DNA of 64,000 nt from an uncultured Gammaproteobacteria bacterium (GCA_964362195.1 CAYICZ010000002.1:63-64062), one strand, 5' to 3'. Numbered from the stretch's first letter, positions 27,027 through 41,017 are shown. The notes: generated by a model not told the origin, from the letters alone. Numbers and translations: made by a program.

Positions 27027-27737
27027 TTACACCTCGAAGGTGTAAAGCTAAATCTCATCCACAAGATGATGTTTTATAAATTCTAACGCTTTGCCATAAT
27101 CAATCTGATCTTCCACAAATTCCGTGTATTTTTCTCTGGAAGGGAATAAATTTAGAATCTCAAGGGGATTACAGAATAGACTATGAGTTTGGGTGTATTC
27201 TAAATATGAAGACCAGGGATAGTATTCTGGTTTCTTGGTCAAATCAGAAACAACCGGATTTAGGTGGATATATCTGGAAACATGAATTAATTGTTCTTGT
27301 GACTCAATCAGGACTGCCTTAAAAGCTCCTTGAAGTAAGGGCCCTACCCTTTTGTATTTAATATTAAAATATTTTGTATAACTGTTAGAAAGTTGGCTCA
27401 TGAAAATTGATATTCCATTGTCTTTCAACTGCTTAACTAAGAAATGGAAGTGATTTGGCATTAAACAATAACAAAGTACCTCTACTATTTTGTTATTGAA
27501 CGAAGTTTTAAAAAGATCTGTCTTTGTAAAATTTGCAAATCTTGGTTTAGGTCCAGGGAATTGGTAATAATATGAGGTTTTCAAAAACCTCATATAATCT
27601 CTGGATTGTTGATAGATGCTTCTTTTCTCGCTGCCCCTGTTATAAATATGATAAAACTCGTTGTTTACTAAGGGTGTAATTCTTCCGGGCATATAAATTA
27701 GTTTACGATTACACCTTCGAGGTGTCAAGCTACATTT
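27027..27737 (-). mobile_element. RayT/IS200-like HUH tyrosine transposase unit flanked by cognate hairpin repeats
   Basis: hairpins ttacacctcgaaggtgtaaagctaaat (27027-27054) and ttacaccttcgaggtgtcaagctacat (27707-27737) bracket the transposase ORF in the same orientation. Confidence 0.6.
27048..27692 (-). CDS. REP-associated tyrosine transposase (Y1 HUH, IS200/IS605 TnpA-like)
   Basis: HUH motif CLMPNHFHFLV and C-terminal SRYIHLNPVVSDL...YPWSSY; start moved to the internal MPGRITPL (27692), because the track N-terminal 23 aa are a translated hairpin repeat. Confidence 0.7.
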   Translation of the reverse strand: MPGRITPLVNNEFYHIYNRGSEKRSIYQQSRDYMRFLKTSYYYQFPGPKPRFANFTKTDLFKTSFNNKIVEVLCYCLMPNHFHFLVKQLKDNGISIFMSQLSNSYTKYFNIKYKRVGPLLQGAFKAVLIESQEQLIHVSRYIHLNPVVSDLTKKPEYYPWSSYLEYTQTHSLFCNPLEILNLFPSREKYTEFVEDQIDYGKALEFIKHHLVDEI

Positions 27738-27945
27738 ATATAGGTTTGCCGGCCAGGCCAAAGATTAGCAGATCGTTAACAAAACCGGTTGCCTGAAATG
27801 GCCAGGTAATAATTACTGAGTAAAATCCCGGAGATAAAAAAGAAATAACAGGCCATTTATAATATATAGCAAAGACTATGGTAAAGACAAATCCTACCAT
27901 AAAATAACTAATAGCAATTGTAGAAAGTATGGCAGACTTTTTCAT
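27736..27945 (-). CDS. small hydrophobic protein (2 TM), hypothetical
   Basis: 69 aa, 4-bp overlap with the gyrA stop; could be spurious. Confidence 0.3.
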
Positions 27946-30503
27946 TTAGTCTTATCCTGATTAACATTATCAGCTGTTTTGTCTTTGCTGGCAACCACTG
28001 TGGCAGCAACAACTTTTTCTCCCGGCCTTACCCGCATTAATATTACACCCTGTGTTTGGCGCTGAAGTGTTGGTACTTCCTTAAGGCTCATCTTAATTAG
28101 CTGTCCTTTGGTGGATGTTAGAACCAAAGTATCCATTGATTTATCAACAACGGAAGCTGTGACAATGTCACCTGTTTTGGCAGTTATTTGGGCAGCTTTC
28201 ACTCCCTGTCCTCCCCTGCCTTGTTTGCTCCAACCGGTTGTCAGGGTTTTTTTGCCTAAACCATTTTCCATAACTACCAAAAGTTCTCCTTCTACTTTTC
28301 CTATAATATTTAAAGAAACAACCTGATCGTCTTTTCCTAAGCGTATTCCTCTGACTCCTGAGGTGTCCCGATGGGTTGGCTTCACCTGCTTTTCGCTAAA
28401 ACGGATCGATTTTCCTTTTTTGGATACTATAATAACTTCATCTTCCCCTGTTGTGGGGGAAACCCAGCCTAAAACATCTCCGGTGTCAAGCTTTATAGCC
28501 ACCAGGCCATTCTTTCTGATATTTGCGTATTCTGTCAAAGCAGTTTTCTTAACAGTTCCGCGCGAGGTACACATAAAGAAGTATTTAGCGCTTTCTCCTT
28601 TACCCCTAGTGGTCAATACTGCAGTTACTTTTTCACCTTGTTCAACATTTATTAAATTGACAATTGCCTGGCCTTTGGCTACTCTTTGGGTTTCCGGAAT
28701 TTCCCAAACCTTTACCTGATAAACTTTACCCTTGTCTGTAAAGAATAAAATATTGTCATGGGTTTGGGTATAAAATATGTGAGAAACCGCATCTGTTTCT
28801 TTTGTAGAGATTCCCATAACTCCTTTTCCACCCCGCTGTTGGGTTCTAAAAGAGGCAGGAGCTTGTCTTTTAACATATCCGCCTTCGGTAATTGTGACAA
28901 TAGTTACCTCATTTGGTACCAAATCTTCTTCATTAAACTCCCCTATTTTTTGTTTATAAACCCTAGTTTTTCTATCATCACCATATCTTTCTTTTATGTT
29001 AATCAGCTCATTTTTAATAACTTTTAAAATTTTCTCAGGATGGGCCAGCAAATCAGTCAAATAAGCAATAGTTTCCTGGACCATTTTCAACTCATCTTCA
29101 ATTTTTTGCCGCTCCAGGGCTGCCAGACGCCTTAGCTGCATATCCAAAATAGACACTGCCTGTATCTCTGATAATTTAAATTTTTTCATCAAATTAATCT
29201 TTGCCTCATCTGAGTCTTTTGATTTTCGAATTGTGGCAATTACCTCATCTATGTTATCAACAGCTATTTTTAATCCTTCTAAAATATGCTCTCTGGCCTT
29301 AGCTTCGCTCAACTCAAACTCAGACCTTCTTCTAATAATTGTCTGACGGTGGGAAATAAACTCCTCTAAAATATGCTTTAGGGTCAAAAGATGTGGCACG
29401 CCATCAACTAAGGCAACCAGATTAACATTAAAAACAGACTGCATAGCGGTTGATTTATAAAGGTTATTTAAAAGGGATTGTGGCTTTGCATCTTTCTTTA
29501 GATCAAACACAATTCTGACCATTTGTTTTCTGTCTGATTCATCTCTTAAGTCTGCAACTCCTTCCAGTTTTTTATCCTTAACCAAATCTGCAATCCTGGC
29601 AATCAGGGTGGATTTATTAACCTGATAAGGCAGCTCAGAAACAATAATCTGCATTTTTCCTGCTGGTGTTTCATCAATTTCTGCTTTGGCTCTCATCACA
29701 ATTCGCCCCTTTCCTGTGGCATAAGCAGCCAGGATTTCTGTCTGGTCGTAAATTGAAGCGCCTGTGGGGAAATCAGGCCCTTTAATAAACCCCAGCAGCT
29801 CTTCCACTGATGCATCTGAGGTAAATTTACCGGTTGAGTCAAACTTAGTCATGGTATCTGAGTGATCAATACCTTCTGTTTTTTCTTCGCTACCCCCTTT
29901 TGAAGGGTTCTCAATCATATAAACTAAAGCGTCGCAAACCTCACCTAGATTATGAGGCGGAATTTGGGTGGCCATGCCAACAGCAATACCTGAGGCGCCA
30001 TTAAGCAGCAGATTAGGTATAACAGATGGAAGCACAGTTGGTTCCTGAATTGTGCCGGAATAATTATCCACAAAATCTACCGTGTTTTTATTAATATCCC
30101 TAAGCAGCTCATCTGCAATTGCAGCCAGTCTGGCTTCTGTATACCTCATGGCTGCAGGAGAATCTCCGTCAATTGAGCCATAGTTTCCCTGACCGTCAAC
30201 TAACATGTATCTTAGGGAAAAATTCTGAGCCATCCTGACCATGGCTTCATAAACAGGGGCATCACCATGAGGGTGTAAATTTTTTAATACCTCACCAACA
30301 ACTGCAGCAGACTTTTGATACCTGGAGGTATGATGCAGGCCTTGCTCGTTCATGGCAAAGACAATCCTCCGTTGGACAGGTTTAAGGCCATCTCTTACAT
30401 CCGGCAAAGCTCTTGAGATAATAACAGACATTGCATAATTCACGTATGAATCCTGCATCTCTTTTATAATTGGGGTTGGTTCTATTTTTCCGATATTACT
30501 CAT
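27942..30503 (-). CDS. gyrA: DNA gyrase subunit A
   Basis: [10 protein letters not shown] active-site Tyr region and a C-terminal beta-pinwheel; 853 aa. Confidence 0.95.
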
Positions 30504-30528
30504 TTAGGAAGGTTAAATTATACCTTTT

Positions 30529-40100: not shown

Positions 40101-40369
40101 ACTCCCACCTTAGGATGAATATCAACCGGAATTCCCCTGCCATCATCAGCAACCGATACGAAGCTGTCTTCATGTAAGCTCACCCAGATGTTTTTGGCGT
40201 GTCCTGCTAGTGCTTCATCAACAGAGTTATCAACGACTTCCTTTACCAGATGATGTAAGCCTCTGGAATCTGTGGAGCCAATATACATTCCAGGGCGTTT
40301 TCTGACTGGTTCAAGTCCTTCTAAAACCTGAATTTGCTCTGCGGAATATTTGGAAGAATCTTTTGCCAT
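37121..40369 (-). CDS. gyrB: DNA gyrase subunit B, intein-containing precursor (1082 aa)
   Basis: GyrB ATPase and Toprim blocks; conserved EGDSAGG|SAKQGRDR motif interrupted by a 434-aa Cys...HisAsn element. Confidence 0.95.
37733..39034 (-). other. GyrB intein with embedded HNH homing-endonuclease domain (residues 446-879 of the precursor)
   Basis: starts with Cys directly after EGDSAGG and ends VHN directly before SAKQGRD; internal [32 protein letters not shown]-like motif. Confidence 0.85.
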
Positions 40370-40384
40370 GAAGTATTTATTCTA

Positions 40385-41017
40385 TCATTTTATTGAAGGC
40401 ATGACCAGCATTAAATATTCCAAAATTGCCCTTATATTTACATTCTGTTTTTGCCACTCCCCTGCCTGCAAAAGTTCTTTTACAAATTTAGAATTGGCGG
40501 GTAATTTTTTATGAAAATAGTCTAGTAAAGAAAGAAAAAACTCTTCCCTGTCTTTTAATTTTTCAATATATTCAAATCTCTGTTCTAAATTGGATTCTAA
40601 TAATTTTTCTATATCTGCTGAAAAGTTAGATTTAGCTTGCAACCTCGGAGGTTGCAGCGTAATTATCTGGCATCGGGATAAAACCGTTGGTAAAAATGGA
40701 GCATCTGAGTTTGCACATAAAATAAATAAACCATGTTTTGGTAGTTCTTCTAAAGTTTTAAGCAGAGCATTTTGGGCCTCAGGGGTTAGCGAGGTTGCAT
40801 CTTCTAAAACAACAGCCCTGCCTTTACCGGAGTATGGCTTTAGTGAAAAAAACTCTTTTATTTTTCTGGACTCAGCAATTCCTAACTTGGAATCTGAGCT
40901 AAAATACAATAAATCCGGATGATTATTTACGTTCACACCTCGAAGGTGTAAGGCTAAATTCTCTTGAATTTCTTTTTTTATTGTTTCAAGTGGTCCAATT
41001 AAAAGCCTTGCAATCAT
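40385..41017 (-). CDS. holB: DNA polymerase III delta-prime-like subunit, short form lacking the N-terminal P-loop; two in-frame palindromic inserts
   Basis: HPDL...GRAVVLEDATSLTPEAQNALLKTLEELP...FILCANSDAPFLPTVLSRCQ matches delta-prime/tau box motifs; the inserts encode ENLALHLRGVN and TLQPPRLQA. Confidence 0.65.
   Translation of the reverse strand: MIARLLIGPLETIKKEIQENLALHLRGVNVNNHPDLLYFSSDSKLGIAESRKIKEFFSLKPYSGKGRAVVLEDATSLTPEAQNALLKTLEELPKHGLFILCANSDAPFLPTVLSRCQIITLQPPRLQAKSNFSADIEKLLESNLEQRFEYIEKLKDREEFFLSLLDYFHKKLPANSKFVKELLQAGEWQKQNVNIRAILEYLMLVMPSIK
40633..40662. repeat. REP-like palindromic element tagcttgcaacctcggaggttgcagcgtaa (copy 2, inside holB)
   Basis: identical to 30738-30767. 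Confidence 0.8.
40933..40960. repeat. REP-like hairpin ttcacacctcgaaggtgtaaggctaaatt (third copy of the family flanking the transposase; inside the holB 5' end)
   Basis: compare 27027-27054 and 27707-27737. Confidence 0.75.

Follow-up and report, generated by a model that had tools for sequence, protein, structure and literature searches.

Probable REP/RayT palindromes carried in-frame in protein loops of a Candidatus Daviesbacteria genome

The host of the analysed DNA is Candidatus Daviesbacteria, a member of the candidate phyla radiation (CPR) from Hainich groundwater. The whole stretch of 64 kb (64,000 nucleotides), referred to here as the window, contains a transposase gene, several housekeeping genes and seven copies of short hairpins. 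The copies had been sorted into types A, B and C by an earlier sequence-only reading, and all seven were found to be present. Four of the seven lie inside open reading frames (ORFs), and a fifth provides a C-terminus. The features are listed in Table 1.

Table 1. Hairpin copies, transposase gene and host genes in the 64-kb window.
Feature	Position	Strand	Description
Type C REP copy 1	2337..2397 (hairpin 2378-2394)	.	61-nt block; tail matching RayT 5' flank of second RayT clade
Type A REP copy 1	27018..27053 (hairpin 27027-45)	.	27-nt spacer between convergent amidase and RayT genes; z=-5.1
RayT-like Y1/HUH tyrosine transposase gene	27048..27692	-	214 aa from ATG at 27692; listed 237-aa ORF begins at upstream TTG
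Type A REP copy 2	27700..27735	.	Directly upstream of RayT ATG
def (peptide deformylase), intact host gene	30529..31143	-	Pfam Pep_deformylase
Type B REP in def (FTLQPPRLQAR)	30732..30767	.	In-frame; tip of beta hairpin before HEIDH motif
murC, intact host gene	35808..37112	-	Pfam: three Mur ligase domains
Type C REP copy 2 in murC (NVHPGGGH)	36919..36942	.	About 24 extra nt compared with orthologues without insert
holB-like (DNA polymerase III delta' type, 210 aa), intact host gene with two REPs	40385..41017	-	Pfam DNA_pol3_delta2
Type B REP in holB (ITLQPPRLQAK)	40627..40662	.	In-frame; site 2, linker after SRC motif
Type A REP copy 3 in holB (NLALHLRGVNVN)	40924..40959	.	In-frame; site 1, helix 1 end and following loop

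The type A core, CACCTCGAAGGTG, was located at 27030-27042 (+), 27712-27724 (-) and 40936-40948 (+), giving three matches compared to 0.42 expected from shuffling. Type B, GCAACCTCGGAGGTTGC, was present at 30744-30760 and 40639-40655 (0.04 expected), and type C, CCACCCCCGGGGTGG, at 2379-2393 and 36925-36939 (0.03 expected), which shifts the type C coordinates assigned earlier by 1-3 nt. The 30-mer at 30738-30767 in def recurs exactly at 40633-40662 in holB, as had been claimed, and the identity ends at exactly 30 nt. For the stability of the hairpins as single-stranded DNA, z ranged from -4.4 to -5.1 in three copies; two type A copies had values of -2.4 and -2.8, and both type C copies, which are individually weak, had -1.8. 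These weak type C hairpins, together with the fact that short palindromes are common, could point to chance similarity or an assembly artefact. However, this explanation was effectively refuted by the shuffle counts (2-3 observed compared to 0.03-0.42 expected), by the exact 30-mer, and by independent assemblies, two of which at ENA hold the same def sequence and dozens of which hold the same hairpin families.

Types A and B aligned best when type B was reverse-complemented, which reverses the relative orientation proposed for them earlier. They are one family, TTAG-C-stem-loop-stem-CGTAAA. Both read TTTACG-(N2-3)-stem-loop-stem-AAGCTAAAT, or (N)TAGC-stem-loop-stem-CGTAAA on the opposite strand, and their flanks are themselves partly inverted repeats. 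A TTAC directly 5' of the stem is conserved in all five type A and type B copies. The unit of about 30-36 nt consists of a (T/G/C)TAG tag, an imperfect GC-containing stem of 6-9 bp, a 3-nt loop and a CGTAAA tail; it includes a -35/-10-like pair, and four of its six reading frames are without a stop. The NTAG tag is conserved at the hairpin foot. It is TTAG or CTAG in most copies and also ATAG, and GTAG was found in the RayT-upstream copy of the window as well as in the related loci L008 and L108.

The transposase ORF matched Pfam Y1_Tnp (1.8e-7), and its best NCBIfam match was REP_Tyr_transpos (E=1.4e-14), at 54 bits below the 80-bit cut-off. No sequence match to any solved structure was obtained for it. 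The HUH motif (NHFHFL) and the catalytic tyrosine (SRYIHLNP) were invariant in 21 homologues. The protein is a divergent member of the RayT clade. The gene is 87% identical to the one in the same gyrA-amidase slot of L084, where GyrA is 85% and Def 68% identical; occupation of the same syntenic slot at such divergence is consistent with vertical inheritance.

The domain matches and the hairpin on each side of the gene bear out the earlier claim that two type A copies bracket a Y1 HUH transposase of the RayT type. The TAG end of copy 1 overlaps the RayT stop codon, and this copy was scored as terminator-like on the minus strand. On the same strand, copy 2 carries a promoter-like TTGACA-17-TAAACT (10/12 match) at 27728..27700, an arrangement of the upstream unit that was seen again at many homologous RayT loci. 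By their flanks the two copies are direct repeats, with the 3-nt loop flipped (CGA vs TCG). The dispersed palindrome is also the flanking palindrome, as type A occurs on both sides of RayT and again in holB. RayT genes with type B or type C flanks were absent from the 64-kb window.

The comparison was extended to 79 homologous RayT loci from Daviesbacteria, Levybacteria, Blackburnbacteria and related genomes. Nearly all of them carry the same hairpin just before the ATG and just after or overlapping the stop codon. The sequence of this hairpin varies per genome or paralogue, and type A-like, B-like and C-like flanks were all found. All three types of the window match RayT-flanking hairpins of related loci, and type C is the REP of a second RayT clade. 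One 770-kb contig contains five RayT paralogues with five different hairpins. Within one genome, the paralogues share 50-70% identity with the query and differ in their hairpins; therefore, they are not recent copies.

RayT and its two direct-repeat hairpins could alternatively form an autonomous insertion sequence of the IS200/IS605 type, with the solo hairpins as orphaned ends. As in IS608 and ISDra2, a Y1 HUH transposase is combined with same-strand subterminal hairpins at both ends, and in L005 the upstream and downstream 30-mers are identical. The conserved TTAC matches the target of IS608 and immediately precedes the stem, an arrangement also seen at the left ends of IS608; furthermore, several RayT paralogues occur per genome. 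However, we consider this reading improbable, given that the paralogues are old, that RayT keeps its syntenic slot across genomes with a divergence like that of housekeeping genes, and that the solo units are whole symmetric hairpins. The flanking hairpins are likewise near-identical and not distinct left and right ends, and no evidence of the gene itself moving was obtained. Members of the IS200/IS605 family would be present as several near-identical copies of ends plus tnpA, and membership was rejected, as no second RayT-plus-hairpin copy was found in the 64-kb window.

The in-frame copies sit in loops or linkers of intact proteins. All host ORFs were full length and kept the motifs that are invariant among orthologues; decay of the hosts into pseudogenes, the counter-case raised by the sequence-only reading, was not seen. 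Its translations (TLQPPRLQA in def and holB, ENLALHLRGVN at holB site 1, and VHPGGGH in murC) were reproduced as given. Orthologues without inserts exist for def, holB and murC, and structural mapping placed the segments at a beta-hairpin tip in Def and in coils or linkers in HolB.

The def insert adds 5 aa compared with solved Defs and forms the loop 128-135 between strands in the AF2 model. Among 96 orthologues, the turn measured 15 aa (canonical) in 12, 18 aa in 9, 20 aa (+5) in 32, and 26-28 aa (+11 to +13) in 24. In 10 genomes, the DNA at this site held a type B or C-like hairpin, a flipped loop, a REPIN-like doublet or a short hairpin, or had no hairpin. REP doublets (REPINs) were present in the Def genes of L087 and L081, and a REPIN-like doublet at the Def site had an ssDNA dG of -16.6 (z=-6.2). 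Between L082 and L084, the loop was flipped (CTTGG/CCAAG) and the flanks were fixed.

In HolB, site 1 is coil in the AF2 model and is empty in L084 and in L115, the closest HolB relative. The copy at site 2 shares its orientation and frame with the def copy, and HolB residues 124-129 have a pLDDT below 50 in the model. The REP segment at site 2 is exactly as long as the linker in orthologues; it is therefore a same-length replacement and not a net insertion, which corrects the earlier description of this copy as an insert. Each of three HolB sites has both empty and filled orthologues. The same applies to MurC, whose insert site is empty in L043, L080 and L088. Outside these genes, type C copy 1 provides the final six codons and the stop of an M1 peptidase gene. 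Its block is missing from the decayed downstream duplicate in the alignment, and it resembles the RayT upstream flanks in L020, L021, L031 and L042.

At Def and at HolB sites 1 and 2, the boundaries of the REP-bearing segment are not clean, and the native sequence whose place it takes is of similar or shorter length. This is contrary to the prediction of simple cut-and-paste.

A metagenome scan for type B stems detected them in-frame in Def, HolB, PheS, MurC, MurT and a methyltransferase-like ORF, and also upstream of RayT genes. About 10 of the 22 credible distinct copies were in-frame. The type B copies in def and holB are not private to the source genome, and type B stems with other loops occupy the same two sites in relatives. 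PheS holds type B relatives in both orientations at one site, and a MurC type B relative lies at the site of the type C copy of the window. At orthologous host positions, either a different REP class or a REP doublet is found, or the insert is missing.

Most orthologues have some hairpin at the Def site, even though its sequence turns over. Together with the -35/-10-like pair in the type A/B unit and the shared orientation and frame of both type B copies, this could suggest that the in-gene hairpins are fixed, selected nucleic-acid motifs that merely resemble RayT flanks, such as promoters (internal or antisense) or sites of RNase action, pausing or supercoiling. Such a function is very improbable as the explanation, however, as many orthologues lack an insert at each site and keep the canonical loop, and one and the same unit turns up in unrelated genes, in spacers and beside RayT, and in either orientation at a single PheS site. 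Insert occupancy was also without phylogenetic signal, requiring 43 Fitch changes compared to 41 after shuffling on a weakly resolved tree.

Recombination is a more serious competitor. Gene conversion between hairpins, or replication template switching at palindromes, would then be the main means by which copies spread and become homogenised, instead of RayT catalysis, and RayT would be domesticated or an unrelated neighbour. The replacement of native loops instead of clean addition agrees with this, as do the two cases of flipped loops with fixed flanks, which are typical of palindrome template switching, and the identical def and holB copies, whose relatives differ in the loop only. In addition, the intragenic REPs of JACPDA010000004.1 differ from the five hairpins that flank RayT genes on that contig. 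Nevertheless, we regard recombination as an unlikely main route. The near-universal, paralogue-specific pairing of RayT and hairpin across the 79 loci is difficult to account for unless the two are functionally linked, gene conversion is unable to seed a hairpin at a hairpin-free site, and recombination is compatible with the REP/RayT reading as a second process after insertion.

In 2013, Di Nocera, De Gregorio and Rocco reported intragenic, in-frame GTAG REPs with a link to RayTs (PMC3733652). These palindromes of 20-40 bp carry a tetranucleotide tag at one end, flank RayT genes, and occur as singles and dimers; the TAG of the tag is often the stop codon of the adjoining ORF. A subset lies wholly inside ORFs of known proteins, including replication and repair proteins and tRNA synthetases, and different REPs were found at about the same recB site in two Xanthomonas species. 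Intragenic units are already accepted in the literature as part of the REP family (PMC3733652). The units described here share with GTAG REPs and REPtrons the short tagged palindrome, the position beside RayT, TAG as the RayT stop, singles and dimers, and an intragenic subset. In contrast, the host belongs to a CPR (Patescibacteria) lineage outside that study, TTAG is the predominant tag (with CTAG, GTAG and ATAG also occurring), and the upstream unit has a conserved promoter-like -35/-10 pair. The intragenic share is about half here and a minority there, and, across an entire clade, most orthologues have the same loop filled, with the REP class changing.

REPINs have been described as almost exclusively extragenic (Bertels and Rainey 2011; bioRxiv 10.1101/2021.07.10.451892), whereas about half of the type B relatives are in-frame here. 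The REPIN-RAYT systems of Pseudomonas and E. coli are alike in their vertically inherited transposase with a fixed slot and its own flanking REP, in having several RayT/REP classes per genome, and in the existence of doublets. They differ from the present system, in which single REPs predominate and the RayT clade is divergent and falls under the NCBIfam cut-off. The analogy to Rickettsia palindromic elements (RPEs) drawn by the sequence-only reading was appropriate for behaviour, as both are in-frame palindromes in unrelated housekeeping genes of reduced genomes, apparently compatible with fold and function. RPEs, however, are about 100-150 bp long and add 30-50 residues, and the short RPE-4 and RPE-6 carry a CGTC tag, a class of tagged repeats without associated transposase (PMC3733652). 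With a TAG tag, a length of 30-36 nt, another host and no sequence relationship, the present units are not RPE members.

With a probability of roughly 0.78, we assign the hairpins to non-autonomous REP-type elements of a REP/RayT system in this CPR genome. The central claim of the earlier reading, that mobile REP/RayT-type palindromes are tolerated in-frame in protein loops, is supported by the RayT-like ORF, the two-sided flanking hairpins, the insert-free orthologues, the loop mapping and the intact hosts. Drawing on the analogy to E. coli RayT and to IS200/IS605, we infer RayT catalysis: the transposase would recognise the folded hairpin on single-stranded DNA, cut and join beside it, and spread hairpin copies in trans. 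Because the genome is almost without intergenic space, surviving copies would be limited to short spacers or to open frames in permissive loops and inter-domain linkers, where they would be translated as 7-11 extra or substituted residues. Occupied loops are re-used, so that orthologous positions differ in REP class or loop orientation, hold doublets, or are empty, and the def and holB copies have been homogenised within the source genome by re-insertion or gene conversion. The route of replacement is likewise inferred, whereas the elements themselves, their link to RayT, their in-frame position in loops, their presence or absence among orthologues and their turnover are observed.

The in-frame REPs of Daviesbacteria are a striking new example and not a new principle, because those of other bacteria were already described in 2013 (PMC3733652). 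The host phylum, the intragenic share of about half, and the recurrent hot spots are the notable aspects. As a tentative extension, which we hold at somewhat less than even odds, REP/RayT elements may be long-term residents of a few permissive loops of essential proteins (Def, HolB, MurC, PheS and MurT) in Daviesbacteria and neighbouring Microgenomates, with these loops being re-targeted repeatedly, through homing directed by the hairpin or TTAC or through conversion from the REP class active at the time. If this is true, a mobile element would keep rewriting the loop sequences of core enzymes. It would also represent a mode of mobile-DNA persistence in gene-dense reduced genomes that is undescribed for REPINs, and one source of lineage-specific protein inserts in CPR bacteria.

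The proposal that this region carries a REP/RayT system, in which mobile short palindromic repeats (REPs) are tolerated in protein loops, was supported with corrections. All seven hairpin copies were confirmed, with the type C coordinates shifted by 1-3 nt from those of the sequence-only reading. The 30-mers at 30738-30767 and 40633-40662 were identical over exactly 30 nt. As ssDNA, types A and B folded better than shuffled sequences (z = -2.4 to -5.1), and type C was weakly better than its shuffles (z = -1.8). A search of the whole window against Rfam returned no hits, so the hairpins do not belong to a described RNA family. 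When the window was scanned with a strict flank-plus-hairpin pattern for more diverged copies, nothing convincing emerged beyond the seven, and a general hairpin census of the window showed other palindromes and no further families.

Hairpin copies in the window and the genes hosting in-frame copies
Feature	Position	Strand	Remark
Type A core	27030-42, 27712-24, 40936-48		3 matches vs 0.42 expected
Type B	30744-60, 40639-55		2 matches vs 0.04 expected
Type C	2379-93, 36925-39		2 matches vs 0.03 expected
def	30529-31143	(-)	full length, motifs conserved
holB-type short clamp-loader subunit	40385-41017	(-)	full length, motifs conserved
murC	35808-37112	(-)	full length, motifs conserved

The reverse complement of type B reads ATTTACG-CTGCAACCTCCGAGGTTGCA-AGCTAGAT, and type A copy 3 reads ATTTACG-TTCACACCTCGAAGGTGTA-AGGCTAAAT. 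Judged from these sequences, types A and B are one family rather than two, and the relative orientation first assigned to them was reversed, as type A aligns with the reverse complement of type B. On the opposite strand, the common unit is (N)TAG-C-stem-loop-stem-CGTAAA, which is a tagged REP architecture, and four of its six reading frames are open. The type A pair around the RayT gene forms direct repeats judged by the flanks, with the 3-nt loop flipped.

The RayT-like ORF (27048-27692, minus strand) matched Pfam Y1_Tnp, and its top NCBIfam match was the model for REP-associated tyrosine transposases (1.4e-14), where its 54 bits fall short of the curated cut-off of 80. Its HUH motif (NHFHFL) and the Tyr of SRYIHLNP were invariant in 21 homologues. 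A PDB sequence search with the RayT-like protein returned no match. More than 7,900 homologues were found, chiefly in Daviesbacteria and other Microgenomates; the best match among GTDB representatives was 70%, and the distribution was assessed over 79 RayT loci and one metagenome pattern scan. In almost every homologue among the 79 loci, taken from reference genomes, the same hairpin stood directly before the ATG and at or after the stop, and its sequence differed by genome or paralogue. The count of repeated GC-rich hairpins in these loci is crude and noisy, mixes REPs with unrelated palindromes, and was used qualitatively only. Type A-like flanks occurred in L003 and L005 (L numbers denote loci from related genomes) and type B-like flanks in L004, L008, and L010. 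One 770-kb contig carried at least five RayT paralogues, which between them had five different hairpins.

The upstream type A unit contains a TTGACA-17-TAAACT pair that ends 8 nt 5' of the RayT ATG, and the downstream unit has a terminator-like score. The promoter-like -35/-10 pair was found again in related RayT loci. The RayT slot between gyrA and the amidase gene is common to the window and L084, where RayT is 87% identical (GyrA 85%, Def 68%, Ddl 70%). In L086, the equivalent place downstream of gyrA is taken by a 47%-identical paralogue, and in four other syntenic loci it holds no RayT. This is the pattern of RayTs, in which each gene is old, has been inherited vertically, and is paired with a REP of its own. 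The RayT coding sequence also contains a perfect palindrome with a 12-bp stem at 27570-27595 (ATATGAGGTTTTCAAAAACCTCATAT), and related 19-mers lie at 34603 and 23549.

A second RayT clade (L018-L021, L031, L042) is flanked by TTCCACCCTTGGGGTGGAA and then TTGACACCTGCGGATTTTT, matching the reverse complement of window positions 2345-2400, where type C copy 1 lies. The 3' end of the peptidase gene has a decayed duplicate downstream, and aligning the two showed that this hairpin is part of a 61-nt block (2337-2397), which is absent from the duplicate and supplies the final six codons and the stop of the peptidase gene. The tandemly duplicated 3' end belongs to an M1 aminopeptidase gene (2282-2334 and 2429-2481, 83% identical), and the downstream duplicate is interrupted by stops and lacks the 61-nt block. 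The duplicates look like a filled/empty pair that arose together with the local duplication.

The peptides quoted earlier for the in-frame copies were correct, and none of the three host genes was disrupted. Contigs from Hainich groundwater encode the Def protein of the window, whose relatives carry the name Candidatus Daviesbacteria; the genome belongs to the CPR/Patescibacteria. The REP segment adds five residues at a beta-hairpin turn relative to solved Def structures and forms the loop 128-135 between two strands in the AF2 model (pLDDT 66). Among 96 orthologues, this segment measured 15 aa with the canonical xNGK turn in 12, 18 aa in 9, 20 aa in 32, and 26-28 aa in 24. The DNA of the site was compared across ten genomes. 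Type B stems with three different loops were found in the window, L085, and L086, ACACCC...GGGTGT hairpins with opposite loops in L082 and L084, and REPIN-like REP doublets in L087 and L081 (L087 ssDNA dG -16.6, z = -6.2). L088 carried a decayed copy, L083 a short unrelated hairpin, and L005 an E. coli-like turn without insert. In L086, a second, different hairpin (10250-10266, Def P0063; CGCAAGCTCGGCTTGCG) encodes a 15-aa insert, GLPATPRKLGLRGGR, in another Def loop after ADGK; thus, Def has at least two insertion-tolerant sites.

In the AF2 model of HolB (pLDDT 85), site 1 (type A copy 3) covers the end of helix 1 and the next loop. Site 2 (the type B copy) follows the SRC motif and lies in a linker that is disordered (pLDDT <50 at 124-129). 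Between helices, a coil contains a third site, which is empty in the window and filled as NLASHLxGGNV in other orthologues. In the HolB gene of L087 (JACPDA010000004.1, 508-1185), the REP loop of site 1, LASHITRGLIAQGSGNTN, holds about 18 extra nt (ACACGTGGGCTAATCGCC), which may be a nested insertion. The MurC site carries type C in the window (+24 nt), type B in L101, and LASHIGSGNV-type units at the same position in L083 and L087. Insert-free orthologues were found for Def (L005), for MurC (L043, L080, L088), and for HolB site 1 in the closest relative. At HolB site 2, the length is equal across all orthologues, so that the REP replaces sequence and adds none. The expected loop location was borne out by the AF2 models of Def and HolB.

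Metagenome contigs were scanned by exact pattern for type B stems with any loop. The scan gave 28 loci, which became 22 credible distinct copies after two likely unrelated matches were set aside and duplicates were collapsed. About 10 of the 22 were in-frame in recognisable proteins, namely Def, HolB, PheS alpha, MurC, MurT (in the linker before MurT_C), and a SAM-methyltransferase-like ORF. For PheS alpha, copies were seen on four contigs and occupied one linker site in either orientation. Two of the remaining copies lay upstream of RayT genes and the others in spacers or short ORFs.

The two type B copies of the window are identical, loop included, and relatives have the same stems with other loops at those two sites. 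These sequences point to homogenisation within the genome, through re-insertion or conversion. Def-site occupancy showed no phylogenetic signal by parsimony (43 changes vs 41 shuffled). The NJ tree used for this was built from a 200-aa protein and has poor resolution, which makes the result weak evidence for rapid turnover. Neither exact insertion boundaries nor target duplications could be defined from filled and empty sites; the REPs do not have clean edges, and they take the place of native residues in the loops. A TTTA/TTAC-like sequence (TTAC or CTAC) was already in place immediately 5' of the stem start at the Def and MurC sites, which is reminiscent of IS608 targeting, but HolB site 1 does not fit this pattern.

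We directly observed the hairpin families, their RayT pairing, the placement of in-frame copies in loops encoded by intact genes, the presence or absence of copies and the turnover of REP classes among orthologues, and within-genome identity. By analogy with E. coli RayT and IS200/IS605, RayT would recognise the folded hairpin on ssDNA and mobilise it in trans, and selection would then retain only copies in spacers or in open frames of tolerant loops. Recombination or template switching is probably also involved when sequence is replaced or loops are flipped.

Other features were recorded in the same region. GyrB (37121-40369, minus strand) has 1082 aa vs 645-683 aa in syntenic relatives. Its extra ~435 aa start directly after GDSAGG and end at VFVHN|S with intein-like boundaries, and thus probably represent a gyrB intein that includes a homing-endonuclease region. 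At 10906-10971, in an apparently non-coding stretch before ORF 11152, a 21-nt unit (AGGCGTGGGCTGGTCGCCCAAAGG) occurs three times in tandem, with a GGGC..GCCC inverted repeat inside each. Three large ORFs in a row (18142-23495) contain long codon repeats rich in Thr and Pro (ACNCCN), which are low-complexity linkers of probable surface proteins. A putative type IV pilus cluster (41043-48902), with a T2SSE-family ATPase homologue, further ORFs, and four pilin-like ORFs (45058, 46541, 46901, 47358) sharing a GFTLVELLVVI N-terminus, adjoins holB in the window and syntenic relatives alike. Toxin-antitoxin pairs, YafQ-family toxin with an adjacent small ORF in L082 (7344-7881) and HicAB in L083 (3382-3887), are inserted at different points of the holB-gyrA block, whose synteny is otherwise conserved in the related genomes.

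GTAG-tagged REPs associated with RayTs, with the TAG of some units serving as stop codon, were described by Di Nocera et al. 2013 (PMC3733652), who also reported units wholly inside ORFs of replication/repair proteins and tRNA synthetases, and different REPs near the same recB site in two Xanthomonas species. In-frame REPs are thus already known, and what sets the present case apart is its host phylum, a TTAG tag, an upstream unit with a promoter-like pair, the intragenic share, and hot spots common to a whole clade. In the REPIN literature, REPINs are almost exclusively extragenic, whereas roughly half of the units are intragenic here. Rickettsia palindromic elements, the classic in-frame palindromes, are longer than the window's units and have no known transposase. 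A literature search for RayT or REP in CPR/Patescibacteria found nothing relevant.

These results extend the REP/RayT system to the candidate phyla radiation, whose genomes here are below 1 Mb, and yet the 770-kb contig alone holds at least five RayT paralogues. For annotation, REP-encoded segments should not be taken as conserved protein motifs, and they are a simple way to account for some of the lineage-specific inserts in core proteins of CPR bacteria. The Def, HolB, MurC, PheS, and MurT copies form a natural catalogue of loop positions tolerating 5-13 extra residues, and the many orthologous filled and empty sites make a tractable case for whether REPs home to existing hairpins. Furthermore, the results illustrate the fate of REPs in genomes with hardly any intergenic space, where about half of the copies that survive are translated.
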